From Nemertoderma westbladi (Eukaryota; Animalia; Xenacoelomorpha): a stretch of 64,000 nucleotides of DNA. Location: NCBI GenBank assembly GCA_032718475.1, contig JAUCBJ010000069.1, positions 1 through 64,000 of the forward strand. The letters are read 5' to 3'. The notes beneath the pieces were generated by a model. It did not search any database, was not told where the DNA came from, and saw only the letters and a list, made by a program, of their open reading frames with translations. Both the position numbers and the translations under genes were made by a program. This document shows positions 3,833 to 30,200 of the stretch, piece by piece; position 1 is the stretch's first letter; the number at the start of each line of letters is the position of its first letter.

Positions 3833-4845
3833 TGTAACTAAGAAATAGAAATCAATCAAAGGAAAAGAGCGCCTATCTAAGCATTCGTAATCTTAGGCAC
3901 ACTTCAATAACACACCAATCAGCGTTAGAAATCACAGTTTACAATTGTGCAATTCACTACTCGTACTCCACACTCAACGTTGTAATACGCGCAGGCCTCT
4001 CCCAGGTACATCTAGGACTCCTAACTAACCCAATTCCTGCCCCCCTAATACTAAATAGAGACAAAATCTGGATCATCAGCCCCCTAATTTGCTGTACCGG
4101 CGATCGGTCTGCGTGCCGCAGTGCAAGTTACCCGCCCGCAACGGTGACCCTGGCCAGCGTTGCTCGCTTTGAATCCTCCGCTCTCTCCTAGTCGCTCAAC
4201 CCCCCGATGCGCCCACCGCCCACTGGCACCTTAGCTCTCCATGATGCTAATAGCTACCGTAGCGGCGCATGCAAATCACAAAGTCTGACAGTCTCAGAAT
4301 CCCTTAGGATTATTGCGCAGAAAGAATCACATAGAACCATTAATCAAAGGTAGAAATCATAGTTCAATTGTAATTAGCAGCAATCAAAGGAATTATTGAG
4401 AAACACAAGCAAGTAATCGCACTAGCAAATCATTTCACGAAAATTAATCAAATTAGCAAATTGCAGAAAATATCAAGAAAAAACAGCAAGACAGGTGCTA
4501 GGGCTAGGTGTCATGTGATGAGTAGAAGATGAGGCTTTACCGGCACACCGCCAATTTATAGGTGATCCGGATGGGATGATGCAATAGGGTGACTCAATCG
4601 CTCTCCTATTGGCTCTCCAGTCCGTGCTAGCACTAGACCAACCTGGAAGCAGCTAGTCCAATAAGGAGGCCGGATTGTAGCCCTATTTGCTTCCCTTCCT
4701 CGAATTATTACCATATATGGTAATGGTTCACGTCTCTGGCTGCTGAATGGCCAGGACAGCGTCCCTATATGCTAGCCCTACTAAAGCTAATATCAGCAAG
4801 CACTGAATCCAGGGTCCGAATAAACTTACCCTGGAACTATCTACA
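3833..4845 (-). mobile_element. Putative 5' LTR of the minus-strand element (TGTAG...TTACA, about 1.0 kb)
   Basis: Minus strand starts TGTAGATAG at 4845 and ends TAGTTACA at 3833, followed by ATAATTAGTTATTGA, which matches the post-LTR sequence of the other element. Contains a promoter cluster. The partner LTR is outside the window, so both boundaries are inferred. Confidence 0.5.
4525..4775 (-). promoter_or_regulatory. LTR U3 promoter cluster: CArG box, CCAAT boxes, AP-1-like site, TATA box
   Basis: CCATATATGG (CArG consensus) at 4711-4720; CCAAT/ATTGG near 4659 and 4608; TGACTCA near 4590; TATAAA on the minus strand at 4560-4555, oriented towards gag. Confidence 0.5.
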
Positions 4846-4981
4846 TATAACCTAATACAAAATTACGTAGGTAGGGCTACATACTATACAAAATGGATGG
4901 TTTCAAATATATGGGCGTTTTGATTTCCCTACCTAAATACCACTGCGTTATTATGCCTTATCTAAAATATCATGCTGCACA

Positions 4982-5180: not shown

Positions 5181-6160
5181 CTTCTTGGGCGGGTTATATA
5201 TACCCAGTATACAATTAAGTTAACCCGCGGAGGACTCTTCTTGGGCGGGTTATATACCCAGTATATAATTGAGTTAACCCGCGGAGAACTCTTCTTGGGC
5301 GGGTTATATACCCAGTATACAAATGAGTTAACCCGCGGAGGACTCTTCTTGGGCGGGTTATATACCCAGTATACAATTGAGTTAACCCGCGGAGGACTCT
5401 TCTTGGGCGGGTTATATACCCAGTATATAATTGAGTTAACCCGCGGAGAACTCTTCTTGGGCGGGTTATATACCCAGTATACAATTGAGTTAACCCGCGG
5501 AGGACTCTTCTTGGGCGGGTTATATACCCAGTATACAATTGAGTTAACCCGCGGAGGACTCTTCTTGGGCGGGTTATATACCCAGTATACAATTGAGTTA
5601 ACCCGCGGAGGACTCTTCTTGGGCGGGTTATATACCCAGTATATAATTGAGTTAACCCGCGGAGAACTCTTCTTGGGCGGGTTCTATACCCAGTATATAA
5701 TTGAGTTAACCCGCGGAGGACTCTTCTTGGGCGGGTTATATACCCAGTATACAATTGAGTTAACCCGCGGAGGACTCTTCTTGGGCGGGTTATATACCCA
5801 GTATACAATTGAGTTAACCCGCGGAGGACTCTTCTTGGGCGGGTTATATACCCAGTATACAATTGAGTTAACCCGCGGAGGACTCTTCTTGGGCGGGTTA
5901 TATACCCAGTATATAATTGAGTTAACCCGCGGAGGACTCTTCTTGGGCGGGTTATATACCCAGTATACAATTGAGTTAACCCGCGGAGGACTCTTCTTGG
6001 GCGGGTTATATACCCAGTATACAATTGAGTTAACCCGCGGAGGACTCTTCTTGGGCGGGTTATATACCCAGTATATAATTGAGTTAACCCGCGGAGGACT
6101 CTTCTTGGGCGGGTTCTATGTACCCAGTATACAATTAAGTTAACTCGCGGAGGACTCTTC
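5181..6160. repeat. 54-bp minisatellite, about 18 copies
   Basis: Unit CTTCTTGGGCGGGTTATATACCCAGTATACAATTGAGTTAACCCGCGGAGGACT, near-identical copies. Explains the 18-aa periodic ORFs on both strands. Confidence 0.97.
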
Positions 6161-6273
6161 CCGCCATTTCACTTAACAAATTTTCGACTGCCGTAAACGC
6201 TTGATTAACTAAATAGGTAATCATCACCAGAGTCTCACTCACTAACACCCCATAAACTATAAAAAACATAGAA

Positions 6274-7554
6274 TCCGTAAGCACCCTTAGTCAGTACTGT
6301 ATGTCCGTAAGCACCCTTAGTCAGTATGTCCGTAAGCACCCTTAGTCAGTATGTCCGTAAGCACCCTTAGTCAGTATGTCCGTAAGCACCCTTAGTCAGT
6401 ATGTCCGTAAGCACCCTTAGTCAGTATGTCCGTAAGCACCCTTAGTCAGTATGTCCGTAAGCACCCTTAGTCAGTATGTCCGTAAGCACCCTTAGTCAGT
6501 ATGTCCGTAAGCACCCTTAGTCAGTATGTCCGTAAGCACCCTTAGTCAGTATGTCCATAAGCACCCTTAGTCAGTTTGTCCGTAAGCACCCTTAGTCAGT
6601 ATGTCCGTAAGCACCCTTAGTCAGTATGTCCGTAAGCACCCTTAGTCAGTATGTCCGTAAGCACCCTTAGTCAGTATGTCCATAAGCACCCTTAGTCAGT
6701 ATGTCCGTAAGCACCCTTAGTCAGTATGTCCGTAAGCACCCTTAGTCAGTATGTCCGTAAGCACCCTTAGTCAGTATGTCCGTAAGCACCCTTAGTCAGT
6801 ATGTCCGTAAGCACCCTTAGTCAGTATGTCCGTAAGCACCCTTAGTCAGTATGTCCGTAAGCACCCTTAGTCAGTATGTCCGTAAGCACCCTTAGTCAGT
6901 ATGTCCGTAATCACCATTAGTCAGTATGTCCGTAAGCACCCTTAGTCAGTATGTCCGTAAGCACCCTTAGTCAGTATGTCCGTAATCACCATTAGTCAGT
7001 ATGTCCGTAAGCACCCTTAGTCAGTATGTCCGTAAGCACCATTAGTCAGTATGTCCGTAAGCACCCTTAGTCAGTATGTCCGTACCGTAAGCACCCTTAG
7101 TCAGTATGTCCGTAAGCACGCTTAGTCAGTCTGTCCGTAAGCACCATTAGTCAGTATGTCCGTAAGCACCCTTAGTCAGTATGTCCGTAAGCACCCTTAG
7201 TCAGTATGTCCGTAATCACCATTAGTCAGTATGTCCGTAAGCACCATTAGTCAGTATGTCCGTAAGCACCCTTAGTCAGTATGTCCGTAAGCACCCTTAG
7301 GCAGTATGTCCGTAAGCACCCTTAGTCAGTATTTCCGTAAGCACCCTTAGTCAGTATGTCCGTACCGTAAGCACCCTTAGTCAGTATGTCCGTAAGCACC
7401 CTTAGTCAGTATGTCCGTAAGCACCCTTAGTCAGTATGTCCGTAAGCACACTTAGTCAGTATGTCCGTAAGCACCCTTAGTCTGTATGTCCGTAAGCACC
7501 CTTAGTCAGTATGTCCGTAAGCACCCTTAGTCAGTATGTCCGTAAGCACCCTTA
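6274..7554. repeat. 25-bp minisatellite, about 51 copies
   Basis: Unit GTCCGTAAGCACCCTTAGTCAGTAT with scattered variants (CACCATTAG, CCATAAG, CCGTACCGTA). Confidence 0.97.
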
Positions 7555-8155: not shown

Positions 8156-8668
8156 TGCCCCCCTCACACGGAGCAACTTGTTTCTGCAACTTGTTTCTGA
8201 AACTTGTTGCTGGACCACCTCACACAGAGAAACTTGTTGCTGCAACTTGTTTCCGAAACTTGTTTCTGTGTGTGAGGACTCCAGCAACAAGTTTCTGCAA
8301 CTTGTTTCCGCAACTTGTTTCTGTGTGTGAGGGAGTCCAGCAACAAGTTGCTGGAAGTTATATTCCCAGCAACTTTTTGAAAAACTTTTATTACATTCCA
8401 TTTTGATACTAGCTAATATTAGATAATTTGAGTGATGTGATATTATATATAAATGACTGGACATGTTAGCTATTTATTTGCAAATAATTGTTATTTTCTT
8501 CAGCAACAAGTTTCTGTGTGTGAGGGGTCCAGCAACAAGTTGCAGAAACAAGTTTCGGAAACAAGTTGCTGAAACAAGTTGCAGCAACAAGTTTCTGTGT
8601 GTGAGGGGGTCCAGCAACAAGTTTCAGAAACAAGTTGCAGAAACAAGTTGCTCCGTGTGAGGGGGGCC
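8156..8668. mobile_element. MITE, PIF/Harbinger (Tourist-like), 513 bp with long terminal inverted repeats and TTA TSD
   Basis: Left end (T)GCCCCCCTCACACGGAGCAACTTGTTTCTGCAAC is the reverse complement of the right end GTTGCAGAAACAAGTTGCTCCGTGTGAGGGGGGCC. Inverted arms exceed 100 bp and are built of AACTTGTT subrepeats around an AT-rich centre. TTA flanks at 8153-8155 and 8669-8671. Confidence 0.88.
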
Positions 8669-8934: not shown

Positions 8935-9510
8935 GACGACTTCCAATTACCTTGGATCATGGATAGAGGAGTAGCAAAAAAAGGCATAGAAGTTAGGAAA
9001 GCAAAGGCTTGGGTAGCTCTATCAACAATGGATACCATCTGGAAATCAGATCTCTCCAGACACCTGAAGACTAAGTTCTTTCGAGCCACAGTGGAAAGTG
9101 TATTTTTATACGGGGGTGAGACCTGGACACTGACTAAATCACTTGAACAACGAATTGATGGTTGCTACACAAGACTACTAAGGAAGGCCCTAAACATCAG
9201 CTGGAGACAACACATGACAAACGCCGAGCTCTCTGGTAAAATACCACCTGTATCAACCACCCTCCGTGAACGCAGATTAAGATTCAGTGGGCACTGCTGG
9301 CGAAGTAAAGACGAGGTCATACCAGATCTACTTTTCTGGCAACCAACTCATGGAAAGCGTAGTCGTGGACGACCGGCCATAACATAGATCAACTTGAAAG
9401 GGATACTGAACTTGAGAGAAACGAAATCGCGACAACCACAGTACGGAGAATCGGGAAGCCTGGAAGGATCTCATTTCCACTGTCCGAGTTCGCTCGACCT
9501 AGTAGTAGTT
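8935..9510 (+). mobile_element. RTE-clade non-LTR retrotransposon, 3' fragment
   Basis: ORF 8959-9387 has post-RT motifs typical of RTE (KAWVAL...IWKS, FFRATVESVFLYGGETWTLT, RLRFSGHCWR, GKRSRGRP). Ends in a short (TAG)n tail near 9500. About 47 bp of the 3' end is duplicated (9444-9490 vs 9511-9557). Confidence 0.85.
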
Positions 9511-10346
9511 GGAGAATCGGGAAGCCTGGAAGGATCTCATTTCCACTGTCCGAGTTCCGAGTTCGCTCGTGTGATACAGTGTTGGCATTCCCTGTGTATT
9601 ATGTGTGGGCGTTGTGGCCACATGGATACATTAAACTGTATAGCTACAGACTAGGTTGTAATAATTAACTCATTGAAGTAAAGTGCTTTCTGCTCTATGA
9701 TGTGATGTCATTACATACATACAGTTGTTGTTTAGGTTGTTATAAATAAAACCGTGTTATTGTCTAAATACTGTACCTTTAAATTATAACTGGTTTGAAT
9801 AATTTAGTTTATAATTTATATTTTACATTCATTATTACTCTACTGTATACAGTATACATATACAATGGTGATTATTAGTTTTGTATAACTATTTACATAA
9901 TTGTGTAAAAAATAGAATTTTTCAGCGTTATCACCCGCGTGTATTTATGTACCGAGTGAATGCTGAGAGGAAGGTTTACATAAATAAAAAGGATATCACA
10001 AAAACTCTAATAAAGTTGACATAATGTAACAGAAGTAATAAATCTTAAGAAATTGTTAGTAAATTATTTTGGAACTGAGAAAGAACCTCTCCCGGCTGTG
10101 TCAGCCTGGTGCTTCCCACTGGTAATTACAGTAACATATTTTTATTAATAATAGATTCTGGAACATCAATATTGTAACGAAATTATTAAAGTTGGTACAG
10201 TAGTAAATCCTTCCTGTCTGATGGTTGGTATATTATTGTTATACATTACAGTATTATTAGGCCTAGCGGACCGGTGCAGTGTGGTACCGGTAACTGCTGA
10301 ACTGGGTAAGTAAAACTGTCAGATTGAGTTGCAACAAAAAGACACA

Positions 10347-11957
10347 ATGGATAATCACGGTAGCACGCTAAATAACATTGGTCCCCAAGACCGTATAGAG
10401 ATGGACCGATATCTCAGGTTCCTTTGTTACAAAACGATACAGATTATAGTGCAAAGTCGTTTCAGCGAGAAGCAACACACAGTTTCTAAACCACTGGCAT
10501 CCGGTAAGGACTGGTTCAACCTAGCGATAACCGATGTGTTGGAGGTTGTAACAGAAGCGAAACGGGTGCTGGCGGGGCAGCTTCCTACACCCGGTAAGAG
10601 TTTGTGTGTGGAACTCTCTTTACGAGTGCACGATGAAGGGACTATTAATCTGGAAGTTTGGTGTATAAGCATCAAGGATAATAAACAATCAGCAAACATT
10701 CAATTACTCTGCACTCTGTACAACCGAATTACAATTCTATTAAAATCGCTTATCTGTTTGAGTCGAATAATGCCGGGTTATCGAATAGCTCACAGCTTGG
10801 ATTCCGATCATAAAGTACTTTACAGGGTTTATTTCGGTAATCCCAGACTTTACACCCTCGGGGATCAGCATAAAAGTCTGAAAGTCGGCCATGTATTAAC
10901 ACCTACCGGTACAGTCAGTTTGTCAACTTACTACCGGACAAAACTCCAGTATCTAGAGAAACTTCCGCAGACTCTAACTGCGAGGGGTCGTGAGGGTTTG
11001 GTGGGAGAGTCTTCGGTGGAGCTGATGGGGGAGGGGGCTGATCGGGGAGGGATTGTGGGGGAGGGAGAAGGGATTATAGACGATCGGAAAGAGATGGCTA
11101 ATGGGGATCGACTTGTCTCCCCAATAAATAACGGATCAAATGCTGTCCGGTCACAGAACGGATGTGCTTCTCCTGACAGAGTTACAAAATCCGATGAACA
11201 AGAAGTACCGGTGAACAAATCAGCGGATTCCGCAGTGATAGAGACGCTATCCTGGCAGGGTCTGGTTCTCCAGACAGAACAGGGTCTGGGACTCCAGAGC
11301 AGTCAAGGTGTGAGAGACCAGACCATCCAGGGTCTCAGTTCCCACACAGGCCATCGGGCGGCCTTCGTCAGCTGTAAAGACAAACCGAATCCCACATATG
11401 ATAATCTTCCCGATGACCCTCCATTCGCATCTCTCCTACTCCTATCCACTAACAACTCGTCTCCCTCGGGCAGTAACCTTTCCCAAGCTAAATCCATGGC
11501 TTCTACTCTCGAGACGGGAGATTTACATGACAATGGGACCCCGGTCTCTGGTAGATCGTCGAGGGAGCAGACAGACCCAGTGTCTGGTAGAGCGCCCAGG
11601 GAGCAGACAGACCTAGAGTCTTGTAGGTCCCCCATGGAGCAGACAGACCCAGTGTCTGTTAGGTCCCCCTTGGAGCAGACAGACCATGTGTTCTATAAAC
11701 TACACAGTAACACTGACCCCTTACACAGTAGGACCTCCGCCTCTGTAGACAACGGAGTGTCCATGGACGTGAGCCCTGCCTTCGCATCTTCTCCTTCATC
11801 CAATGCTGACTTGGACTTCTATCAGAGTTGGCAAAGGGCACCGCAACTGAAAACGATAAATCAGTCGAACGTTGCGAGTCCGATAAACGAACAACTCGAG
11901 TCTCTGAAGAATCAGATGAGTGGATTTGATATCGATAATCTATTGGCGGGTCTGTAG
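10347..11957 (+). CDS. ATG13: Autophagy-related protein 13 (N-terminal HORMA domain plus disordered C-terminal region), single-exon ORF, 536 aa
   Basis: QDRIEMDRYLRFLCYKTIQIIVQSR...GKDWFNLAITD...EAKRVLAGQLP...LCVELSL...LEVWCI and LYNRITILLKSLICLSRIMPGYR match the metazoan ATG13 HORMA domain. C-terminal PAF...DLDFYQSWQRAPQL...EQL...GFD matches the ATG13 ULK1-binding tail. First ATG is at 10347 (the track starts at an upstream TTG). AATAAA near 12097. Confidence 0.93.
   Translation: MDNHGSTLNNIGPQDRIEMDRYLRFLCYKTIQIIVQSRFSEKQHTVSKPLASGKDWFNLAITDVLEVVTEAKRVLAGQLPTPGKSLCVELSLRVHDEGTINLEVWCISIKDNKQSANIQLLCTLYNRITILLKSLICLSRIMPGYRIAHSLDSDHKVLYRVYFGNPRLYTLGDQHKSLKVGHVLTPTGTVSLSTYYRTKLQYLEKLPQTLTARGREGLVGESSVELMGEGADRGGIVGEGEGIIDDRKEMANGDRLVSPINNGSNAVRSQNGCASPDRVTKSDEQEVPVNKSADSAVIETLSWQGLVLQTEQGLGLQSSQGVRDQTIQGLSSHTGHRAAFVSCKDKPNPTYDNLPDDPPFASLLLLSTNNSSPSGSNLSQAKSMASTLETGDLHDNGTPVSGRSSREQTDPVSGRAPREQTDLESCRSPMEQTDPVSVRSPLEQTDHVFYKLHSNTDPLHSRTSASVDNGVSMDVSPAFASSPSSNADLDFYQSWQRAPQLKTINQSNVASPINEQLESLKNQMSGFDIDNLLAGL
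11535..11690 (+). repeat. 39-bp coding tandem repeat in ATG13 (13 aa, EQTDPVSGRSP-like, about 4 copies)
   Basis: GGAGCAGACAGACC recurs every 39 nt; protein SREQTDPVSGRAPREQTDLESCRSPMEQTDPVSVRSPLEQTD. Confidence 0.85.
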
Positions 11958-13750: not shown

Positions 13751-13779
13751 TAGATTCTAGGTTCTTTAGATTGCTGTTC

Positions 13780-14995
13780 ACGTGAGAGAAACTGCTGTTG
13801 AGAGACTGCTCCGTGGAAATCAGAATGGGTTCCGTAAAGGTCGTGGGACCATGGAGCCCATTTTGGCACTTAGAAGGATAATTGAAGAGTTATCAAAAAA
13901 GAAAGACAGGCATCTGGCTGTTATCTTTGTTGACTTCTTCAAGGCCTTTGATTCAGTCTCTCGCTCACGTATGTTCAGCATACTTTCATTATATGGGATT
14001 CCTGATGAAATTATTGCAGCAATCAGATCAGTATACGATGGTTCGACAACATTTGTGTCTACTGTTGACGGTGACACAGAACCATTTGAAGTGTTATGGG
14101 GCGTCCTCCAAGGAGACACACTTGCACCATTCTTGTTCATTATTGTGGTTGACTATGTTCTACGCATGTCCTTAGATCATTATAATGATGATGGGGTGAT
14201 GATAACTCCACCTACTGGCTCCAGAAGTCGAGGAAATCCTGCCAAGTACCTAACTGATCTAGACTTTGCTGATGACTTAGGAGTACTCTCAGAATCATTA
14301 GAGGGAGCCCAACGGCTCCTCAGCTCATTAGAACATGCTGCTTCTAGTGTTGGTCCTTTTATTAACTCCAGAAAGACCAAAATTCTGACAGTTAACTTTG
14401 AAAGTCCTCAGCAAGTCTCTGATCGGATGAGCATAATCTCAAAGGATGGTATGCTTGAGCATGTGGACGACTTCTGTTACCTGGGATCATGGATCCGGAA
14501 GTCAGATGAGGACCTTCGAATACGTAAGGGAAAGGCATGGGCAGCCTTGAATAGGCTTTCCAGGATTTGGAAGTCACCTAGAATTAATCGGAAACTTAAG
14601 GTCCGATTATTTAGAGCAGCAGTAGTTCCAGTTCTCCTCTACGGGAGTCCATGCTGGGCTCTAACTGCTGAGGACACCAAATCTCTGGATGGCACATTCA
14701 CAAGAATGCTACGCCGGGTTCATTGTGTCAAGTACAATGCACACATCTCCAACCAGACACTATATAACATTGGAGGTGTCTCATTGGTTCCCCCAAGCTT
14801 GACACTAGAACAAAATCGCCTCCGCTTTGCAGGACATTGCTTTCGCCGTGAGGACCAGCCAGTGCATAATCTTCTACTTTAGCAGCCTCATGGAGTGAAT
14901 AAGCATGGTGGACAGCCCATGACTTTCTTGAGACGGATCTTAAAGGACACTGGCCTTAAAGATGCGGATGATCTATCAAATGTCATGGGTGATAC
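13780..14995 (+). mobile_element. RTE-clade LINE, 5'-truncated reverse transcriptase fragment
   Basis: QNGFRKGRGT, FVDFFKAFDSVSR, GVLQGDTLAPFLFII, DLDFADD, FCYLGS, VLLYGSPCW, RLRFAGHC. Premature TAG at 14880-14882 (expected Trp), with the frame continuing to about 14995. Diverged from the 8935-9510 fragment. Confidence 0.9.
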
Positions 14996-14999
14996 AGTA

Positions 15000-15387
15000 G
15001 GGAGTTGTGGCGGTGCAATTTTGTTGACAAGCCTGCACAGCATTCTTAAAAATGCAGCTGCAATGCAGCATGCCGATCCTAGTAGTGTTCACGTTTCCCT
15101 CACTCACCCTACTTATCTTGAGGTGACCAGATTACGGGGTACAATATTTAACCGGAATCCTCACAAATGCCTTGAAAGCAGTTATCAGTCCACTGAAATG
15201 AAAAATGAAAAGAAATAGAAATGGAAGCATCTGAATATTATATTGGACGCCTTGCAAGACTTTGATACGTTCGCTGCAGTAGTGACCAGAAAGTCATGTC
15301 ACATAAGAACAGGAACACGGAGGTCCTTTGCAAGTCTTTTTTACTTTTAAGTTGTTTTCATTTAACGTGTATGGGCAGAGGTGCTGG
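15000..15387 (-). pseudogene. Decayed CR1/L2-like LINE RT C-terminal fragment, cut by the LTR insertion
   Basis: Minus-strand translation across frameshifts gives YTLNENNLKVKKTCKDLRV...SNIIFRCF...LITAFKAFVRIPVKYCTP(V)IWSPQDK, resembling the CR1/L2 pattern Y.L....L......KDLGV...R.F...AYKA.VRP.LEYCSPVWSP. Confidence 0.6.
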
Positions 15388-16645
15388 TGTAAAAGCTTCT
15401 GTGGGATATAACTGGCCCCTTTGCTTCGCAATCCAGTCTCCCCCCAGGCGCTGGAATACTCTAAAAGGTTCTCTAACTGTATATATATTCCCCTCGCCCG
15501 CAAGGTACCGTTACAGGTGTTTTAACGGACATAAAAGTCATTCGTCTATATACCTGCTTTGGCGGACATGGTAAGGCAAAAAACCCGCAATGCACCAAAT
15601 ACCTTTACACGGCTTGGCCTTGATGATTCAGATTGCGACATCTAGCAGCTGGTTGCTGGCATGGAAACAGCCATTGGACGCACGGTTCTTTGTTTGGTTT
15701 GAGCCAATCAGAGCGATTTTTTCTGTCGACGTGTAGATATTCGGCCGATGATACTAGGAGTGTTCAGTCTTACTGTTTTTTCTTGATACTTTGTGTTGTT
15801 GCTATCTAGGCCAGGAACACCGGCTCTAGAGTCAATTAGTTTTCATACTTTAGAAGAAACATTAGTAGGCTTAAATTATAGAGTGTATAACTGTTATCAC
15901 ATCATATATCAATTCATATCAACTTGTTTCTATTCTTGCATTATCGGTTCAACATACATTATTATACTGCTATTTACTGTTGTGTTTTGGTTGAATATTA
16001 TTTGGGGAACATATATAAAGAACCCAAATTTCCCAATTTTCTTGATACACTACAGGTTAGAGAGACGGGTTATATATAGCGATTGCGACTTATATTGTTG
16101 TGGTTTGTAGTGAATTTAATGCTATTTGGTAAGCCCTACATGAGTCAATTGCTGTTCGCTTTATATATGATAAAATTCATTGACGGTCGGCAAATGAGTG
16201 AGCAGTATTGTGTGTTACCGGTAGTGTGCCTGATGGTGATTGATAACTAAGCATTTCCTAAAGAATGCGCCTCATACGTGAATCATAAGCCTTACCGACT
16301 TACCGTTGTGATTAGTATAAGTCATATCTCTGTTTACCTAGATAGAGCGCCACGTCCTAAAGGAACTGTTAATATTTCCCGAAAGTGAATAATATTAGTC
16401 AGAAATTATTTATTAACGATCAATCGAATAATACAGTAAGCTTGCACTGCAATAATAATCTAAGCCCTCAGAATCCAGTCTCCCGGGTATATCCAGCGGG
16501 TGAATGGACGCGCACTAGGCTGGCTTCTGCTAATGTTGTGTTTATTGGTATTAAATATTTGTCATCTTCTAAAGTCTATTTATAAACCAAAAGATATATA
16601 AATTTTGGCAGGTTAAACTGCTAAAGGTCTTCAAAAGCGCGTACA
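15388..16645 (+). repeat. 5' LTR (1258 bp)
   Basis: Starts TGTAAAAGCTTC and ends AAAAGCGCGTACA; aligns along its length with 30201-31440. CCAAT boxes near 15674 and 15704; ATTAAA near 16550. Confidence 0.93.
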
Positions 16646-16711
16646 ATAACAGTTATTGACTTTATTGCAGTAAGCAATAAAGTTGAAAGTACCGGTCGAC
16701 CGGTAAACCTG

Positions 16712-16840
16712 AACCTGTACTTCTGTAGGTCAGTAGGCCCAACTGCCAGAACCGGTACTGCCGTAGGTCCGTAGGTCCAACTGCCAGAACCGGTACTTCT
16801 GTAGGTCCGTAGGCCCAACTGTCCTAACCGGTACTTCCAG
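16712..16840 (+). repeat. About 38-bp tandem repeat in the leader (3 copies)
   Basis: CTGTAGGTCCGTAGGCCCAACTGCCAGAACCGGTACTT-like units. Confidence 0.75.
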
Positions 16841-16999
16841 TATAAGTACATTAGTATTATTCGATTTTGATTATTGTATACCGGTAGGTCTCGATATTAA
16901 ATCGGGGACGCCTGGTTTTTATTGGGATTTTACTTAGGTCTATTTCTGTCAGTTTTATTTCCTAGTAAGTTAATATTGAGCTGAAGACGTGTAAGTCTG

Positions 17000-17590
17000 C
17001 TCAGATTGTTCAGATAACTGTAGGCCGGACTGTTGTCGGATTGTTGTTGGGTTTGGAGAGATTACTGCGTGTGTAGAGTTTGTCCGATAGAGTGCCAGTT
17101 AGTAAGTTGGGGCAGCCATAGCTGTAAGGTCAATCCCCTCTTAAAGAATAAGTCGTACTACCGTGTTAGAACGCATACTAACTAACCATTTTGGAATCTG
17201 CACATCTGTAGTTTATTTAGGCTTGACAGTATTCTGCCAACGTTTTGGCCTGTGTTTGTTTGTGTAGTCTGTTCAGGTACCGTAATAGTTATTACTCAGA
17301 TATTTTGTAGGCTGGATTGTTGTCTAGCTATTATTAGGTCTGAAAAGATTGCTGCGTGTGTAGAGTTTGTCCGATAGAGTGCCAGTTAGTAAGTTGGGGC
17401 AGCCATAGCTGTAAGGTCAATCCCCTCTTAAAGAATAAGTCGTACTACCGTGTTAGAACGCATACTAACTAACCATTTTGGAATCTACACATACTGTAGT
17501 TTATTTAGGCTTGGTGGTAGTCTGCCAGCGTTTGGTTTGTATTTTGTTTGAGTATTCTGTACGGGTAGCGTAATATTTATTATTCAGAGT
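17000..17590 (+). repeat. 288-bp tandem duplication in the leader
   Basis: CTGCGTGTGTAGAGTTTGTCCGATAGAGTGCC...TTTTGGAATCT (about 135 bp) occurs identically at about 17065 and 17352; the flanking parts of the units are diverged. Confidence 0.9.
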
Positions 17591-18877
17591 TTATGCGATT
17601 ATTCGCAACATTCATGTCCCCAAGTTTATTCCTACAGTAATTGTGTTTGTTACACATACCGTTATAGTTAAATTAACCCCGGTACTACACGGGCTGCTTG
17701 GCGTAGGAAAAGACTGGTGACTTTGTGCTTCGGTCACTCCAGCAGATGCCGTGGTTCTTTTAACTGTTCAAGTATATTTAACTACTGATTATTTGTTGTA
17801 CCAGTACTTGTACCTAATTTAGGGTTTAGTGTACAGTGCTTTCCGAGGTAATTAGTGTGTAGGCAGTATATTTGTGTTGTAAAGTGGTTAATAGGCACGC
17901 TGGATCTGGTAGTCCGCGGTAATTAACTTCCAGGTAGGAACACTCCGTGATACATAACGTAGTACCTATAGCGATACGGCTATAGGTCGTCAGGCGGTGG
18001 TATTTTCCTATCTGGACAGTGCAATATATTTACTACTACTTATTATTTTCAAATACCGTAGTACCCTGTCCGTTGTAATAACCAGAATTCTAACCCTTTG
18101 TTAGGCTGGTTTGTAGACTTCCTGTAAAATTACCCTAAAAATTTCATACGTAATATTTTGTTGTGTTTAATTAGAGATTTAATCTCACCCGTATCGTAAG
18201 TAATTTGTAGTATTAAGTAACTTAGGTAAATTAGAATTATCTGTTTTAGTGTCCAATAAATAGCACTTCACTGAGAGCGCCCAGCTTCTGTGTAGTGACC
18301 CCCCAGAAATAATAACATTTATTTCGAATATTGAAAAAACCCTTTTAAACGGATATATATATATTATAAATCAACTCAAACGATTTATAAATAGTAGGCC
18401 TGCCATACAACAACTAGGTCTCAATATCAGTTGGACTACTGCTTAAATAACGGTAATAAAGTAAGTTAAAGTAACCAAGTAACCCTAAAATATTCAGAAA
18501 TTCAATTATTCTAAAATAATTGACATACCGGTATTTACCATAGGCTTATTATATTTATTTCTATAAATTTGAGCTGAAATCATACCGGTATTCTGTAATT
18601 AATTCTAGTTCATAATTATACTTATATATACTATAAGTGTAAGCTGTATACCGGTATTCACGATAGGCCTATTATATATTTATATATATTTGTGCTAAAA
18701 TTATATACCGGTACTCTGTGACAAACCTAGTTTACAATACTTATATATACTATAAGTGTATACCGGTATTCTAATATACTGTAATAAATTACCGGTACTA
18801 GGCCAACGGTCATACTGAATTACTAGACTTGTTTTAACTGTAACTATAGCAGTAAGCATTCAACTGTATAGCTAAAC

Positions 18878-21800
18878 ATGTCTGACACTCAGCAAAACCT
18901 GTCAGACAGTCTAATCGATACAACCATCTGTGACACAGATAGGAGTGTGGAGCGATTAAGAAAGGAGTTCAGCTCACCTCCTACTGAAAGAAAGGTCATC
19001 CCTCCAGTAGAAGTATCAGACCCTAAGTTAATCCAACACCGTAGGTCTATCATCGGCACTCGGGCCCAAGTCAAACGGAACCAGGAAGCAGCTGTCCCAC
19101 AGCAGCAACAGCCTAGTCAAGAAACTTGTTCCCAGCGATCCGATAGCTCCAGTAATTCGGATACTGTCGAGCTGACCCCCGAACGCGGATTGCAGATGGC
19201 GGCTAAAGCCTACTCGGACCCCCTTCTCACCCTTCCTGCCGCAGTGCTAACTACTATATTGATGCGGTGGAGGAACATCAAGCCGATTGGGCGAGAAATA
19301 AGCGAGCGACCCAAGATAATTATGCGGGATACGCCAGGGAAGAATTGATGTCTATTGTCGAGTCACAATGGAACTTTCCCGGACCCGGACTCCCGTTAGA
19401 TCTGTCCGAGGCTACTTGGGAAGATATACACAGGATGGGAGTGGCTAAAGATACAATGGATCCAGCTGTTTGGAAGAGGTCGGCAGCAGGATATGTGCAG
19501 GGATTCTTCGGCTCCTTGGAGCGATTAGAAGAACAACTGTTTCGACAATCCCAAGGACCTCAAGAGCAGGAAGAGCTGCTATATCAAGTACGCGAAAGAA
19601 CCCTACGCATTAGATTAATCCTATCAGCCTTTGAGGAAACTTCCAAAAGAAGACAGGACACGTCGCTGCAGGTTGCTGTCAAAACTTGGTTCCAGCGGGT
19701 CGGTCTCAAAGTAAAAGAAACGGACCAGTGGAAATCCCAGCTGTCTGAGAGACTAACCTATGAAGAACCAACCGATGCCACTCTTTCTCAAGTGGAAGGT
19801 GAAGAGACCGCAGAGAGACCACGAACGAGAGACGCCATAGACATTTATCTGTCCGACTATCAGCGATTCCTAGGAGACGAAGAGTTGAGGAGACGGCTGT
19901 CTGGACTTTCCCCTAATAGTGAAGGAACCCAGCGTGTGTTAGACTCAATCGATGCTGAAATGTTAGCTGCTAACCAAGCTGAATTTGATGAAAAACTCCG
20001 CCTCACTAGAGTCCAAGAAGAACAAGTAAAGAAAAGACAGATTGAGGACCGAAAGGCGGCAGCAGTAGCAGCGGTAATGGCAGAAGCAGAAGTGGAAAGA
20101 AAGGCAGCAGCAGTAGCAGCGGTAATGGCAGAAGCAGAAGTGGAAAGAAAGGCAGCAGCAGTAGCAGCGGCAGCGGCAATGGCAGAAGCAGAAGTGGAAA
20201 GAAAGACAGCAGCAGTAGCAGCGGCAATGGCAGAAGCAGAAGTGGAAAGAAAGGCAGCGAAGGCAGTGGCAGAAGCAGAACGGAGAGCGTCTGAGGAGAC
20301 TACCCAACTGGAGTTGGAAAATCTGCAAGAGACGCAAGACAACATAAATAAACAGTTAACTGCTAGTCACATGCAGATGATGAGAAAATCTACTCCCAAA
20401 CGCCAGGGATACACATCATCGGAAGAAAGCGAAACCACCTATCCTGAAGGCGGAGGAAATAGATCTCGTCTAAGCAGGCGTAGAAAAACATCTCACCGTC
20501 ACAAATTGCCTGATTTGCCCCCAGCTGTTAGAAGACAACTAGCTAGCACAGACTTAAGTAGTATAGAACCTACAGACCAAATTATTAAGGTCAAAAGACT
20601 CCCTACTATAGTTGATGAGCCTGAAATAATTAGGCCTGTCATTCCCAAAGTCACCCCTGTGCTAGAAACTCCTGTACTTCCAGAGCTTAACTCTAAATTC
20701 CCTTTACATAGTACTACACTGCCTGTACCCGGTAGAACAGTCCATGAGAATATCCCTGTCCTGGAAGCTGAGAGAGAAATCAAAGATTTGTCTCCCGTCA
20801 TCCCGCGTCAGCCCGCTACAATGTTGGCGACTCCCGCTTCGGCGGTTGAGTGGGTAGAGGAGGGACGGCGGGGGATGAATCTCCTGCTCGGACAGATGCA
20901 GGAGACTGTCCACCAGCTTAAGGGAACAGTAAGGGAAGGTAGGGCAGAATTGCAAGAAGTGCAGCAAAGTATCGCACTGGAACGCGACAAATTAGTCAAT
21001 ATACAAAAGGGCATACCAATACCCCCTGTAACATTGTGTCAACCTGTTAGGTCTGAAGTATTACATGCGGAAGGTGTGGAGCCTACACGCATCTATACTG
21101 CTAGTGAAGTAGAAACTCCTATAGCAAACCCTATTAAGGGTGATTATAGACCTGTTATTAATGATATTCCCTATAGACCTGACAATGATCCGAGAAATTT
21201 ATATACCGATAATTCGATATTAAATAACACGATGGCCCAAGTAAGCTTTACGCGTCAGATGGCTAGAACAGAAGCCCGCCAAGCGGTCAAAGTGGGAGAG
21301 ATCGTTAAATTCAATGGAGATGAGATGAAATGGTTACCTTTCAATGAATATTACAAAGATAGCATACAGAACTCTGTACTATCTAACGGAGAGAAACTTA
21401 GGTTCCTCATCAAGTGCTTGGAAGGACCTCCCAAGTTAATGGCGTTAAAGTTTATTGGACATCCAGAAGGATTAAGACAAGTTTGGGATACATTAAACAT
21501 CAGGTATGGTAACAAGGATAACATAGCTAAGTATTTGTATGCCAAATTAGTAGCTCCCCGACACTTCCTTAGTAGCGGGATTATAGAGTTTTCCGATGAG
21601 ATTCAAGAGATCTGTAGACAATTGGATTGGTTAGGTAAGTCTCATGAATATCAGAGTTCCATGGTTATTGGAGCAGTAGTCTCTACTTTACCAAAGGGTG
21701 GAGTATGTACACGCTGGGACAAGAAAGTGTTGTACATGAATGAACAACAACGACGAAGCCCTACCATGGCTGATCTCATGTCCTTCTTAGATGGTGAGGT

Positions 21801-24800
21801 AAAACTACAACTCATCAAGCAGTCCAGAGAGAAAACATCGGAAAATAAGGTAAGTGAGAAACCCACTTCTAGGAGAAGAGTAACACCGGTGTGTTACACT
21901 GACGACGGCGAAAGCCAAGCTTCTCAAGAAGAGGATAGCGGGAAAGACACTGAGAGATCTTACTACGTTGACAAAACCTCAAAAGATGTAAGTAAATATA
22001 AGGCTCGAAACAACGATAGGAGAGAACAGGTTGCCAAGACCCCTCCTCAGTCTCCTAACAGAATGCACCGAAGAAAACCCGAAGAAAGAACGAGAGTGCA
22101 TCAAGTTACCCAAGGTAAAGTGAGTAACATAAAACCTAACTGTGCGCTGTACGACGGTACCCACCGTTTGAGTGCGTGTGCTGAATTTCTAAAGAAATCC
22201 CTTGTAGACAGACGTGCAGTCGTATGGGATAAGCGGTTATGCTATAATTGCCTCAGACCAGGACACCAACGGCGAACCTGTTACTCCGACATAAAGTGTG
22301 CAAAGTGTGGCGCGAAACATCACATCTTGTTACACAGTGAGTTCGAACGAGACAAACAGAGTCAGGTAAGTGAGCCCGAACTACATGTCCAATTCAGTGA
22401 TGTAAACGACACTGATCAAGAATCTGAGATGGAAGGATTCTATACTGACGAATTCTCCGACGCCAACGAATCCTGTTATCTAATCAATACCGCAGTGTAT
22501 CGAGCACTTACTTATGAAAAGGACACCAACAATGAGTTTCCCCCAACTACTTTTGCCAAACAACCATCTTGGAAAGTTCCAACTTCCAACGTAGGAATCA
22601 GAGAATTTCCTGTAGTGCAGGTAAGAGTTCACGGTCCTGACAAAAGTTACATAGTGAACGCCCTCCTTGACTCCGGCAGCACAGGAACATTCATCGATCA
22701 AGAACTAGCCGAAGATATCTTTGCTGGACAACCCAAATTCCGGACTAAATTGAATATGTCAGGAATTATGCAGGTTTGGAAATCTACCCTAACGGCAGAT
22801 TACTATGTAGGTGTGTTGTCCACCCCCCAGGATAAGTTAGGAGCACAAGGTATAAGGTCGGTAAAAATGGTGGCTATAAAGAACTTCGCTACTACTCAAG
22901 CAGACCTTTATAATTGGGACGAGGATGAGAGCATCCAACATCTTAAGATACCTCGATTCCAGACAGATTATCCTGGAGTGCAAATACTCATCGGCCAAAA
23001 CGCGCACGAGGCGCTCGAAACATTGGAGAAACGGCCTGCTCAACCGCAGCCACTGCAAACCTATGCGGTAAGAACTAGAGTAGGTTGGTACTTTACTGGC
23101 CCTTCCCGCAGGACTCTCGAAGAGAGAAGGCCACAAGAACGAGTATACCAGGTGAGTGATTGGAGCGAGGAGAGCAGTGAGGTGGATGAACTAACTGAGG
23201 AAACACCATACTCTTCAGATAATGACGACATCTACCAACTCTTCGATCAAGAGAACACCATCAACCTACTTACAGAAAACCAAACTTGGAAAAATCAGGT
23301 GAACCTATGTCAACTGATTCGCCCCTCGGAACCCATCGCATACAATGACGAACTAAACGATGAGATAGAGCGCTGCAACGCTAGAACTCGGGACGAACTA
23401 GCCGTACGATTCTTTACTCAAGAACTGGTAGAGCCCAATTCATATGATAAGGCCCTATCGATAGAAGAAGAAAGAGCCAAGCAAATCCAGGAAACAACTA
23501 CACGTTTTTTAAAGGAACAAGGTAGATATGAAATCGGCCTACCATTTCGAAAACGAGAACCTAGATTTGTAAATAACAGACCCTTGGCAGAGAAAAGAAT
23601 CGCTCAATTGCATCGACGCCTTACGGCTAATACTTCAGCTAAAGAAATGTACCAAACTCAGCTGAAGAAATTTATAACAAAGGGATACGCGGAGCGAGTA
23701 CCGGAAGGAACACCAGTGACTGAGAGAACGTATTACTTAACACATCATTACGTTCCCAAACCCGGTAAACCCCATGAAGTCCGAGTCGTATTCGATGGCT
23801 CTGCTCTATATATGGGCCAATCCCTCAATTCCGAGTTGTTACCCGGACCCAACTTACTCCAATCTTTGTTGGGAATACTTTTGAGATTAAGACAATATTC
23901 CATCGCGTTCGCCTCCGATATAGAAGGAATGTTCTTACAAGTCAAGGCGCTGGATAGAGATAGAGACAGCCTGAGATTTCTGTGGTGGCCTGAAGGAGAC
24001 CTCAATCAGAAACCGGTAGAGTACTGGATGACCATCCAGGCTTTTGGAATCATATCAAGCCCTTCCAACGCCTGCTCCGTGGTACGAACCACTGCGAATG
24101 ACAACCGAGACTCCTTCTCAAAAGAGGTGATAGACAACATCAAACGGAATATATACATGGACGACAATTTAAGGTCCCTTCCATCAGTAGAAGAAGCCAT
24201 AGATGTCGCGAAAGGAACGGTAGAGTGTTTGAAAAGAGGTGGATTTCGACTGACGAAATTCACCAGCAACTCCCGTGAGTTTCTGGAAGCGATACCGGTA
24301 GAAGACCGCGGAGCGAAAGACCTAGACTTAATAAAGGACGATCTTCCTGAAACCAAGACGCTTGGCTTGAAGTGGGACACTGAAAGAGACATCCTGTTTT
24401 TTCAGCTCAAACAGCGAGATAATCCAGTTCGGACCAAACGGATTTGTTTAAGTATCCTGAGCACTTATTTCGACCCATTGGGATTTATTAGCCCAGTTAT
24501 ATTGATTGCTCGGAGTTTAGTACAACAAATGTGGCTTGAAAACCACTCATGGGACGATCCGCTTAAGGGAGAATTGTTAAAGAAATGGATGAAATGGGAA
24601 GATTCTCTACCTGCCATCGAGAACTTTATAATTTCCCGTACATACTTTGGCCATGTTCTTCCTACGTATTCCTATCAACTCCATGTGTTTGGAGACGCCA
24701 GCGATATGGGAATAGGTATAGTAGCATATCTGCGAGTCGAAACCCCGGATGGAATCAAAGTCGCCTTGGTTACCTCTAAGGCATTGATTAACAACAAGTT

Positions 24801-27039
24801 AAAGGTTCCTCGAGCGGAGTTAAAGGCGGCTTTATACGCTACAGCCATCGGCCGGAACGTAACGGAACAAATCGATTACCCACTGGAGAAAACGGTTTAT
24901 TGGACCGACGCTTTACTCGTGTTGGAGTATCTAACCAATGAAGTCTGTCAGTTCAGCGTTTTTGTTACTAACAGGGTAGCTATTATTCTTAGTCGCACAA
25001 AGATAGATCAATGGAGACATTGCCCTGGTACGATTAAGCCAGCCGATGTCGCCTCCAGGGGAGCAACTCCACAGGAACTGATAGATACTCCAGATTGGTT
25101 GGGTGGACCCGACTTCCTGAGCAAGGAAGAGGATGAATGGCCTCCTCACCTTACTACGGCAGAGATTAGACAAGCCAAGGGAGCGGAGACAGTCAAACCT
25201 AAAATCCGGGCGAGTAAATCGAAGTTATTTAAACCGACTATCGATCTATCTGTATTACATACTTCCGGGAATGATGCTTCGGATCCACAATCCCTCAACA
25301 CAAATAGGTCTGTTGTGGAAATTAGATATAGAGATTGGAAATCTGGAATACCAGACGTCTCGCAAGGAATCTCACCCATGCTGCAGAGAGCAATGCATCA
25401 TTACAGTTCCTGGAATCGGCTTTGTAAAGCCGTCACATATTTAAGACGATGTTTTCATCATCACTACTCCAGGACGAAGACCACTAGTGATAACGCTCCA
25501 TTGACATCTGCACAAGTTCATGTTATTAAAAATTTACCCAAATATAAGACATCTGACCGTTTTCTAAAGGAGAAAATTAGTCACCAGGAGCATGAAGAAA
25601 CCAATAAGCAGATACTGAGACTCCTGCAATGCTATGAGGATTCCGAAAAGTATTTCCTGTTGTTGAGAAATCCGCAGATGCGCTTAAGGGATCGATTCTC
25701 GAGCACAATGATAGATGGGCTAATACGTGTTGGAGGAAGACTCACCAATGCGCCCTTATCCTTTGACACCAAATTCCCCATACTTATTAGAAATCTTGAA
25801 GTACAAATCAAGATGATTGTAGATGTTCACAGTAAACTTTATCATGCTGGTAGAGAACGAGTTCTTAGCGAAATTCGAACTCGCTATTATTTTGATAAAC
25901 CCCGTAGAGCTCTGAACCAAGTTCTTAGGAACTGCATACCCTGTAGGAAAGCATTCAGTAGGCCTTTAACACAGCGAGAGGCAGAATTACCTAGGGAACG
26001 AGTAAGCTTCTATGAACCACCTTTTACTAATACTGGTGTAGATTTATTTGGCCCTATTGAAGTATATCGTGCGAGGACTATAGTCAAGAGATGGTGTGTC
26101 ATCTTCGTGTGCATGACTTGTAGAGCCATCCATCTCGATATGGTGAACGATCTATCTACCAACAGCTTCGTCTTAAGTTTACGACGACAGATCGCTCGCT
26201 TCGGGACGAGTAATACCATGAGATCGGATAAGGGAACGAACTTCATTGGTGCCAACAACGAAATACAGGCTTACGTGAAGGACTGGAACCAAAGACAGGT
26301 GGACGACCAGCTAAGGATAACAGCATCTAGCTGGACCTTCAACGCCGCCGACGCCCCTTGGTGGGGAGGAAGTTGGGAGAGATTAATTAGAAGTGTTAAG
26401 ACCGCATTTCACTTTATAGTGCCATGCCGCGCGTATCTCACCGACGAACTTTTGCGGACGTTAATGGAGGAAATAGCTGCCTATCTCAACGAGAGACCGC
26501 TTATGCCAGTCTCATCGAGTCCAGATTCCCTGGAAGCTCTAACACCCGCGCATTTCCTACTGAAGAAACCTGTAGCCATGCTCCCACGATCGGAGATTGC
26601 CGACGGAGACGAATACTGCCGTCGAACTTGGCAACTTATGCAGTTGCTATCCCGTCGTTTCGCTGACCATTTCGAGAAACATTATCTGCCCACGCTACAA
26701 CTTCGAACTAAGTGGTTTGCGCAGCAAGAAAACGTCAGCGCCGGAGATATGGTGCTTATTGTAGATCCAGACCTCCCACGTAAACGGTGGCAGACAGGTC
26801 GTATCATCGAGACCCACATCTCGGATGATGGTTTAGTACGCTCGGTAGAACTCATCGTCATGCGGCGTAACTTCAAAAAGCCAGGCATAATCTTTGAGAC
26901 GCAACAACTCAATCGCCCAGTTGGTCGTTTATGTTTACTGGAAAGAGACAGAGAACTCTCTGGAAACTATGGAAGGCAAGACACTCTTCCCACGACCACC
27001 TCCCTAATTCCTCAAACATCTAGGGACTCCCCAACGTGA
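18878..27039 (+). CDS. BEL/Pao Gag-Pol polyprotein, interrupted by one frameshift at about 19207-19266
   Basis: ATG at 18878 (frame A to 19348). Frame B is open from 19207 to TGA at 27039. Motifs: Gag KFNGDEMKWLPF (DUF1759-like), Zn knuckles LCYNCLRPGH...CAKCGAKHHILLH, protease LLDSGS, RT RVVFDGS/GPNL/DIEGMF/YMDD, RNase H FGDAS/PRAELKA/WTDA, integrase H-H-C-C, DLFGP, SDKGTNF, GGSWERL, C-terminal DUF5641-like region. Confidence 0.95.
20050..20285 (+). repeat. 45-51-bp coding repeat in Gag (RKAAAVAAVMAEAEVE, about 5 copies)
   Basis: GCAATGGCAGAAGCAGAAGTGGAAAGAAAG units. Explains the poly-Cys and poly-Leu antisense ORFs. Confidence 0.9.
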
Positions 27040-27850: not shown

Positions 27851-28668
27851 ATTGTGTCAATTTTAACATCAAATAATAAAATTCACGGGAATAAATTTAA
27901 ATTCATACTTTAAATGAATTTCATAAATTGTCGTTTTGTGCAATTTATAACATTCCCAAAATTCCATTAATTAATAGATCATGGGAGCGGAGATTCATCC
28001 TATTGAGTGTATTAGAGTGCGAGAATCTCCGACATATAGTCAATAGCCAATAAAATTAATAAAATCATGTATAAAGAGGATATTGACAATTAAAGAATTA
28101 CTATTAAATAGCATTCCAGATCTGTATGCATGAGAATTACCCTAATTCTACCGCTAGCTTTCCATAATGTCACCATAGCAACACCCACGCTAGAATTAGA
28201 AGCAAGTTAAAAGAACAATAGAAAGCTTGTCCCATTGCATAGCATAGAGAATACATAGCACACTGTTAGTATCCAAGGATACACAGTAATAACGTGACAT
28301 TCTGGAAGGCACTGACTAACGGACAAATGGCCTGTATGTGTACAATTGGTGACAGTTGTGTGGAATTTGTGCGTTTATAGGTGAATGTTACTGCTAAAGT
28401 ATGTTTACAGTAGCTAGTCGCAATTGTGAAAGTAACCCAACTCTCCTATAGAAAGAACCTAAAGTGGATTCAAGCCTTTGGGACGGACAGTGGAGTGACT
28501 TGTGCCAGTTATCGTTGTCGTGCTGTTGCTACATGTTGGCGTAAACACCGCGACGACGGTACATCGGCGCTGAGAATCCCACTGTCCGGGGGTAAAGAGA
28601 GGTAGGCAGCGACGCCCGCTCGCCTAAACCTAAACTCATTACAATATTAATAAACTCAGATAGCAGAT

Positions 28669-30122
28669 ATGACGGAGTTGATAGAAGATGATCTTGGTAT
28701 CAGGGAGCGATATACTCTACCTTTACAAGCATTTGTGGATAGCTTGATACGCGGTGAAGCCGATCCACCCATTACTGAGGACGATGGTCGTTATATCGAA
28801 CCGCCGATTCCCAAGAGCAACTTACGCGTGAATTGGACTATCTAAAATTCACCGCTCGCTATGCGCATCGTAATGGTACGTATATGGACTTCCTAACTAC
28901 CGGCCATCCTATCGATTTACATGATACGGACGATGTAGACACCGAAAGGGAAATGGTTCTATTTAAATATCATACCCAGCGGCGTCGTAACGATAAACCG
29001 AGAATAGATCACGAAAATTCTATTCGTAACAGACTGGGAAGACGAACCAATATGCCTAGAATCTGAGGAGATTCAGCCTATCGCGCCCGGAACAGCGACA
29101 ACGATTACATCCTAGAATGGTATCAAGGTCCACAGTGTCTCACTGCGTACGATTATCGCCATGCCAACTATGTTTCTCGGCAACGTTGTCGGTTATGCGC
29201 ATCGAGAGACCATGTTACGCCCATGGACACAAACGTCCGCTGTTCCTATTTCCACGAACAACCGGCGATGGAAATTTATTGCGCGTATTGCAGACTCAAT
29301 AACTTGCACATTTTTGCGGTTTGCCCTCAATTTATGACTCAATGACACCATTGTCAACAAAAGGGACGCGCCAGTTTCGATTGCCCTTTTTAATCACGAT
29401 TTGGATGAATTAGCTTAGATGAAATGATCACACTACGTTACATCAGAGCTTGGGAAGCGAACGCTGATTTACATTGTGATTCGCGCCATCGTTATTATCC
29501 TGGACGCGCTTACGAAGGAGTTTATGCGTTCCATCCTTATCTATTCGCTTCTGTCGAACAGAAATCACGCATATCGAGTTACGAACTACTGAAGCGCGTC
29601 GGAGAATGTATTTCAACCAAGTTCGTACGCAAATTTCTCAGGAGTGTTAATCCTAGCGACCTTCATTCCTATAACCTAATCAATTATATCCGTCAGGATC
29701 CGGACTATGGAGACTTATTTGTTAACTCACACCCCGAGTTACAGGAAGTATATCGACGGCCTTACGAATACCGAGCCCGCGAACGCGAGTTGGAAAGAAC
29801 CATTAAACCCCGGAGGTTTCTAACTGCCTATGGTCCACCCACGGCCCTCGTTCAGACCACTCGTAAAGGACCCGTAAGAGCGGCTGTCTTGAAACGAGCT
29901 CTCAAAGCCGTTAGACCTCTCTCCCCTGACGATGATGTCAATCAACCCGGTACTTCGACTGGCGGATACACCGACCATAATCCTACACCCTCTGATGCAA
30001 TCATATTGCACCCTTCACCCAGGAGTTATAGCCCTCCTTGTAAAGTGGCTCGCCCCAAAGAGAAAAGGACTCTGGCTAGCTTTAAAAAACTGCGTAAACG
30101 CCGTCCGCGCAAGAAAGACTAA
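28669..30122 (+). pseudogene. Accessory ORF of the BEL/Pao element: about 480-aa protein with three CCHC-type zinc knuckles and a basic C-terminal NLS-like tail, disrupted
   Basis: ATG at 28669, a frameshift near 28800-28830, then one frame (shared by track ORFs 28833 and 29424) with stops at 29064, 29343, 29391 and 29406. It reads CRLCASRDHVTPMDTNVRC...CAYCRLNNLHIFAVCP...(*)HHCQQKG(R)ASFDCP and ends KKLRKRRPRKKD. Confidence 0.7.
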
Positions 30123-30190
30123 CTGTTTAGAGTATTTATGTATATTAGAAACTGTGATTTTGTATATTTTATAGACTCAAATCCCATTTT

Positions 30191-30200
30191 CTGGGAGTGG
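30191..30200 (+). other. Polypurine tract (PPT) before the 3' LTR
   Basis: CTGGGAGTGG directly abuts TGTAAAAGC at 30201. Confidence 0.7.

Follow-up and report, generated by a model that had tools for sequence, protein, structure and literature searches.

How a BEL/Pao retrotransposon primes its reverse transcription when the bases directly behind its 5' long terminal repeat (LTR) do not offer a site for a tRNA 3' end is the question raised by a locus from the xenacoelomorph Nemertoderma westbladi. Belpaoviridae are described as tRNA-primed elements whose replication is poorly understood (PMC8742986), and the ICTV 2021 account assigns to them an 18-nt site for the 3' end of tRNA-Arg or tRNA-Gly and a genome of 4.2–10 kb (PMC8742986). 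The locus lies on the forward strand of a 64,000-nt stretch (assembly GCA_032718475.1, contig JAUCBJ010000069.1, positions 1 to 64,000; hereafter the window), for which a sequence-only reading had suggested that a cluster of hairpins takes the place of the tRNA site.

By its predicted domains, the 16-kb element is a member of BEL/Pao (Belpaoviridae), with Pao-type Gag and Pol domains in the order PR-RT-RH-IN. Its gag-pol region (18878–27039, +) is dominated by an open frame of 2610 codons (19207–27039) encoding a Pao-type Gag with Cys-His boxes, followed by protease, RT (YMDD), RNase H and integrase, and giving Pfam matches to Peptidase_A17 (1e-35), DUF1759, DUF5641 and Integrase_H2C2. Judged from the predicted protein, the catalytic motifs of the pol frame appear intact, including the acidic residues of RNase H, and the nearest database relatives of the polyprotein are animal Pao-type polyproteins (about 40–44%). 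The first ATG of gag, at 18878, opens a short frame (18878–19348) which is out of frame with the long one. Polyprotein scans of viral contigs gave no match, and four long viral contigs matching a 17-nt LTR-end pattern were dismissed as chance hits. Behind pol, an extra reading frame (28669–30122, +), rich in Cys and His over some stretches and ending in a basic C-terminal tail, is broken up by stops and a change of frame; its last 237 codons are open, and the last 234–237 codons show no match in Pfam or Atlas. A CAG is found just before the ATG of this frame (28664–28671) and a donor-like GTAAG at 16670, in a hairpin loop behind the 5' LTR. Possibly, the frame is expressed from a spliced subgenomic mRNA, as with retroviral env.

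The 5' LTR (15388–16645, +; 1258 bp) and the 3' LTR (30201–31440, +; 1240 bp), the latter preceded by a short purine-rich tract at the polypurine tract position (30188–30200, +), both have TGT...ACA ends and share 93.5% identity over 1270 columns in the self-comparison. The start of the 5' LTR was deduced from the alignment of the two copies and from loose ends of contigs of two sequencing runs (X4 and X5) before 15386, whereas a start at 15385 was dropped in favor of 15388. A target-site duplication is absent in the window copy (GCTGG versus GCTAC), and the 3' LTR directly abuts a 53-bp satellite, suggesting, together with the divergence of the LTRs, that two insertions have probably recombined to give this copy. 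The satellite, of which about 600 copies fill 31441–64000, begins exactly where the 3' LTR stops, so that one recombinant end would lie within it. Elsewhere in the window, an intronless ATG13-like frame of 547 codons (10314–11957) is located between LINE-like RT fragments (8935–9387 and 13770–14882), and tandem arrays of 54-bp and 25-bp units (5181–7554 and 8157–8667) are found together with an inverted-repeat block of 13-bp units resembling a foldback element.

The proposed end of the 5' LTR, GCGTACA at 16645, proved correct. Right after this motif, the two LTR copies part (16645 and 31440), and contigs of runs X3 and X5, which belong to two other studies, leave the element at 16645 or 16646. 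LTR and leader are present in contigs from five of seven runs, originating from four studies, where X1 may be the source sample and X4 consists of contigs only guessed to be RNA. Junction contigs from X1, X3, X4 and X5 were compared over 16596–16705, with 21 of 46 loose-end rows and 32 of 1374 pieces listed. Among these rows, long loose ends are found behind 16645 in six and behind 16646 in two X3 contigs (agreement 0.5 and 0.65, respectively), and the corresponding numbers for X5 are one and two contigs. As these flanks differ from one another, this is a genuine LTR end and no mere truncation by the satellite. None of the loose-end flanks listed begins with TGG, which is a statement about rows that each blend several flanks and not about single contigs.

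In agreement with the sequence-only reading, a site for a tRNA 3' end does not follow. The primer-binding-site position (16646–16656, +), directly after CA, reads ATAACAGTTAT, an interrupted palindrome without TGG; the first TGG past the LTR end is found at 16913, and CATGG does not occur in 16600–19300. Nor did a TGG site turn up in sister copies among the pieces listed, which carry the same TGG-less junction. At least three X4 pieces (records 19–21) span the LTR end with at least 31 bases on each side, record 21 being identical to the window sequence, and two X3 pieces (records 11 and 12) with only 17 LTR-side bases show the same junction at a contig depth, which is no copy number, of about 4400–4900 versus 24.6 for the unique 5' flank. 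Clearly, the LTR-leader junction is not private to the window copy. In the window, ARAGORN detected 0 tRNA genes and Rfam gave seven weak matches, all below the gathering score; hence, there is no element-encoded tRNA-like primer.

What the bases behind the LTR do complement is the LTR itself. The 11-mer ATAACTGTTAT at 15887–15897 (+), a candidate self-primer also present in the 3' LTR (30694–30704), is the exact reverse complement of 16646–16656, with the match beginning at the first base after CA. At this offset of 0, an 11-nt match was reached by 2 of 2000 dinucleotide shuffles with the 5' LTR and by 1 of 2000 with the 3' LTR, while at offsets 0–3 it was 5 of 2000 and 9 of 2000, respectively. 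Among 13,544 internal positions, 11-nt complements to the LTR begin at seven starts forming five clusters, compared to three in the same-strand control. The published rule for self-primers asks for a match of at least 10 bp starting 0–5 bp after the LTR (excerpt of PMC6317226), and the window element has 11 nt at offset 0. Moreover, 15878–15884 adds seven pairs (one of them G-U) past a 2x2 loop, resulting in a duplex with 18 of 20 positions paired. This 20-nt duplex has a predicted energy of –17.2 to –17.3 kcal/mol, attained by 0 of 300 shuffles; the value with the 3' LTR is –15.3 kcal/mol (10 of 300). The pattern ATAAC-N-GTTAT occurs in the window only at 15887, 16646 and 30694 and is the same on both strands. 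As an interrupted palindrome, the 11-mer is at the same time nearly a direct repeat. Immediately 3' of the primer site, 16662–16671 is complementary to a further LTR stretch of 10 nt (16446–16455, +), a match equaled by 15 and by 5 of 1000 shuffles. A flanking duplex on the U5 side, in contrast, is at chance level (862 of 1000 and 867 of 1000 shuffles as good). The 13-nt complementarity of the LTR stretch 16422–16434 (+) to the leader at 16854–16866 might represent an outer stem or be due to chance; it was this match, rather than the primer site, that a blind scan of LTR and leader chose.

As the 11 bases following the LTR are exactly complementary to 15887–15897, we consider it probable, by analogy with Tf1, that the window element uses its own RNA as the primer of reverse transcription. 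In Tf1, the transcript's initial 11 bases anneal to the site, and RNase H cleaves between bases 11 and 12 (excerpt of PMC7175516). Transferred to the window element, transcription would start at or shortly before 15887, the RNA 5' end would fold back onto 16646–16656, the element's RT/RNase H would cut past the duplex near 15897/15898, and the freed 3' end would then prime minus-strand DNA across the remaining LTR. Predicted folding is sensitive to the position of the RNA start, with a probability of the central pair of 0.87–0.99 for starts at 15870–15888, 0.17 for 15860 and at most 0.01 for 15855, 15830 and 15768. The clearest promoter-like motifs, a CCAAT box at 15704 and an initiator-like TCAGTC at 15764, are located 120–180 nt upstream of 15887, and visual inspection roughly 30 nt ahead of this position reveals no obvious TATA. 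The CCAAT box at 15704 has a counterpart in opposite orientation at 15673, 31 bp apart.

Variation around the two pairing partners was also inspected. Two nucleotides past the 11-mer, a divergent LTR block starts (15900–15967, +) in which only 34 of 72 columns are alike between the two LTRs, compared to 1151 of 1195 elsewhere, and a dip in depth at 15860–15981 overlaps with it. Under the self-priming model, this block would coincide with the 3' end of strong-stop DNA, which is only suggestive. Within 15887–15897, no LTR variant is present among the 40 of 171 variant rows listed. In the primer site, a T>C change at 16654, hitting pair 9 of 11, is found in at least 13 X1 contigs and at least one X4 contig, and among the rows listed other contig groups diverge after 16654 or rejoin the reference at 16660 or 16670. 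Overall, the post-LTR stretch differs between the copies listed while the LTR end is kept, fitting poorly with a single fixed host primer.

The three inverted repeats reported to follow the LTR end are all present as described, and the segment 16641–16705 folds at –21 kcal/mol (z –5.2), with 0 of 200 shuffles as good. The first of them, across the LTR end (16644–16658, +), contributes only –0.4 kcal/mol and is a by-product of the palindromic 11-mer. The 10-bp hairpin (16659–16683, +; –10.2 kcal/mol), which has 13 bp when taken as 16656–16686, bears the possible splice donor at 16670 in its loop and AATAAA at 16676 in its 3' arm. This hexamer (16676–16681), lying outside the LTR, is the sole AATAAA in 15388–16720, and the LTR has variant hexamers only. 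The 16-nt palindrome (16690–16705, +; –7.5 kcal/mol) ends with ACCGGTA, representing the first of the ACCGGT repeats of the leader, where this motif occurs 12 times, and adjoins a 38-bp tandem repeat (16711–16837). Among the rows listed, some contigs diverge from the reference just before or within this palindrome, and certain loose-end groups follow the reference again no earlier than 16670, beyond the 5' arm of the 10-bp hairpin. The single-base changes listed for this hairpin affect its loop and the foot of its stem. Of the three, only the 10-bp stem looks like a kept structure. With the first hairpin unstable and the third not kept in all copies, the local hairpins are probably not the primer, and a local hairpin internal to an RNA offers a free 3' end only after cleavage. 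The 10-bp hairpin may rather serve as an alternative fold or as a splice-donor hairpin. From the earlier suggestion of tRNA-independent priming by hairpins or self-priming, the self-priming part is consequently retained on the basis of sequence, via an LTR site 760 nt upstream, and the route via local hairpins is given up.

For comparison with other BEL/Pao elements, metagenomes were scanned for relatives, resulting in 79 loci kept from 524 confirmed stretches, most of them without usable LTR ends and eight with both ends fixed. These relatives are distant, with at most about 46% identity to the window element, in line with its position as a long lone branch in a midpoint-rooted FastTree of 98 RT/RNase H rows. 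Seven of the eight fixed-end relatives are complementary to their own LTR over 10–15 nt, six across a GT-AG junction and one contiguously, whereas the remaining one (L014) has a TGG tRNA-type site after the LTR. At offsets 0–3, five match across GT-AG (10–15 nt) and one contiguously (11 nt), each with 0 of 300 shuffles. These shuffle figures do not cover L049, which shows nothing at offsets 0–3 and a 12-nt junction match at offsets 0–5. LTR introns are predicted in L020, L031, L035, L049, L061 and L064 and, with inferred LTR ends, in L002, L010, L033, L041, L053 and L059. The introns have GTAAG or GTACG donors, and their junctions are complementary to the post-LTR sequence by 10–15 nt, this sequence being family-specific. 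A scan with free ends over 13 loci gave junction matches of 10–11 nt in nine (0–3 of 40 shuffles) and none in L049, L069, L073 and L076; the last three, with inferred LTR ends, show no pairing signal.

The dependence of the pairing on the own LTR is also evident from a cross table comprising the window element, the eight fixed-end loci and five loci with inferred ends, while near-duplicates (L002, L018, L021, L055, and L065), the negative L069, L073 and L076 as well as L050 were left out. Here, a match of at least 10 nt is seen in 13 of 14 own pairs but in only 1 of 182 cross pairs, the former value overstating the own-pair rate as the five inferred ends were picked by their match. Covariation of primer and site is thus seen across distant families; it was not seen within the family of the window element, for which the two sites stem from separate molecules. 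The tRNA site listed by the ICTV is missing from seven of the eight fixed-end relatives and, hence, is not a family-wide feature of BEL/Pao. Tentatively, and with slightly less than even confidence, we propose that a large marine branch of BEL/Pao as a rule relies on self-encoded primers instead of tRNAs, most families producing them by spliceosomal splicing within the LTR, and that the 16-kb, high-copy lineage of the window element is intron-free with a Tf1-like 11-nt ATAAC geometry. In that case, self-priming would span gypsy, copia and BEL/Pao, and the ICTV definition of priming in Belpaoviridae would need revision.

Several other explanations for the missing tRNA site have to be weighed against self-priming. 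A host RNA different from a tRNA 3' end, for example a half-tRNA or another small RNA, might be the primer and the LTR match due to chance. Half-tRNA primers indeed occur in other LTR groups (excerpt of PMC6317226), the chance of an LTR match is small but not nil (0.05–0.45% of shuffles), and a longer unrelated LTR-leader match exists at 16854. However, such a primer is unlikely considering that the post-LTR stretch differs among copies, that distant relatives match their own LTR and not one another's, and that no tRNA or Rfam gene was found in the element. More closely related to our preferred reading is a self-primer that arises through a splice within the LTR or stems from another LTR site, as the six of eight fixed-end relatives pairing across a GT-AG junction would suggest. 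GTAAG donors are available in the window LTR at 15571, 16129 and 16436, and the GT-AG pair 15893–16055, which encloses the variable block, would yield a 10-nt match. Yet, the donor of this pair is GTTATC, its match is equaled by 5–6 of 100 shuffles, and the best junction from six stronger donors and 36 acceptors only reaches –10.1 kcal/mol, compared to –17.2 kcal/mol for the contiguous site, making this explanation very unlikely. A splice-junction primer was rejected for the window element, with no junction beating the contiguous site.

It appears most improbable that the local hairpin cluster replaces the primer site in the manner of the Conserved Hairpin Site of GalEa, where a 9-mer palindrome immediately behind the LTR pairs with a sequence 12–41 bp further on (excerpt of PMC5445492). 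The cluster is real, as indicated by its z value, and its 10-bp stem is largely kept, but the hairpin spanning the LTR end is hardly stable, the third palindrome is missing from some copies, and the post-LTR 11-mer has its partner in the LTR and not downstream, while an LTR complement was not found by the GalEa authors according to the excerpt of PMC5445492. The palindromic nature of the 11-mer leads to another alternative, a protein-binding or RNA dimerization site present twice, with the complementarity being a side effect and priming achieved by another molecule. The confinement of ATAAC-N-GTTAT to its three positions and its identity on both strands would agree with this. Nevertheless, the 11-mer carries the complementary base at its middle position, pairing runs seven further pairs past the palindrome, self-dimers are weak (–5.0 and –5.5 versus –10.1 kcal/mol), and relatives with non-palindromic sites still match their own LTR, so that a binding site is considered very improbable. 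Self-priming from 15887–15897 therefore is regarded as the likely explanation. Counting against it are the steep dependence of the predicted pairing on the RNA start, the upstream position of the promoter-like motifs, the palindromic character of the 11-mer, the preference of the blind scan for the match at 16854, the change at 16654, the chance-level duplex on the U5 side, and relatives that are distant, mostly depend on a splice junction and, in L069, L073 and L076, give no signal.

Tf1 has been demonstrated to self-prime, and the same is predicted for certain lineages of gypsy and copia, as stated in excerpts of the cited literature. For BEL/Pao, no report was found in the literature searched, with most subscription journals, Repbase notes and supplements lying outside of it; PMC3118150 does not mention primer, PBS, tRNA or self-priming, PMC554778 does not mention PBS or tRNA, and PMC5443660 contributed nothing on the subject. 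If the window element does self-prime, BEL/Pao would be a third superfamily independent of host tRNA. It would then not be subject to control through tRNA fragments, and annotation tools requiring a tRNA site would miss it.

Compared with the ICTV 2021 description of Belpaoviridae, the window element complies in the Cys-His boxes of Gag, the order PR-RT-RNase H-IN, the Peptidase_A17, DUF1759 and DUF5641 domains and the TG...CA LTRs, but deviates by the missing 18-nt tRNA site and by its size of 16 kb instead of 4.2–10 kb (PMC8742986). With the relatives L012, L020, L031, L035, L049, L061 and L064, it shares the lack of a tRNA site and a complement to the own LTR 0–4 nt from the LTR end. Only L012 and the window element have contiguous complements, whereas the six other relatives need a GT-AG splice inside the LTR, and the window element differs from the marine relatives by its much longer LTR and leader and its own long branch. 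Among systems from other superfamilies, plant Tcn1 (gypsy) and TAR (copia) are predicted to be self-primed by the same rule, albeit in other hosts (excerpt of PMC6317226). The fungal copia element GalEa with its Conserved Hairpin Site likewise has no tRNA site, a post-LTR palindrome and a nearby hairpin, but its palindrome pairs downstream and no LTR complement is described in the excerpt of PMC5445492, in contrast to the window element, where pairing is with the LTR. A close parallel is provided by Tf1 and Tf2 of Schizosaccharomyces pombe, Tj1, Tosmo and the Tf1/sushi group, which also have no tRNA site and, directly after CA, 11 nt pairing inside the 5' LTR (excerpts of PMC7175516, PMC11042837, PMC10085805, and PMC4600332). 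However, the window element does not belong to Tf1/sushi, having Pao domains and no chromodomain match, and is a BEL/Pao element and not a Ty3/gypsy chromovirus. Further differences from Tf1 are an LTR of 1258 bp with 750 nt from primer to LTR end, a palindromic site, and a start site and cleavage that are here predicted from sequence. Nevertheless, the site starts with ATAAC as does the primer-binding site of Tf1 (excerpt of PMC11042837), and from the three duplexes of the Tf1 'pretzel', as outlined in the excerpts, the central one and the 3' flanking LTR-leader duplex have counterparts in the window element, with the U5-side duplex at chance level.
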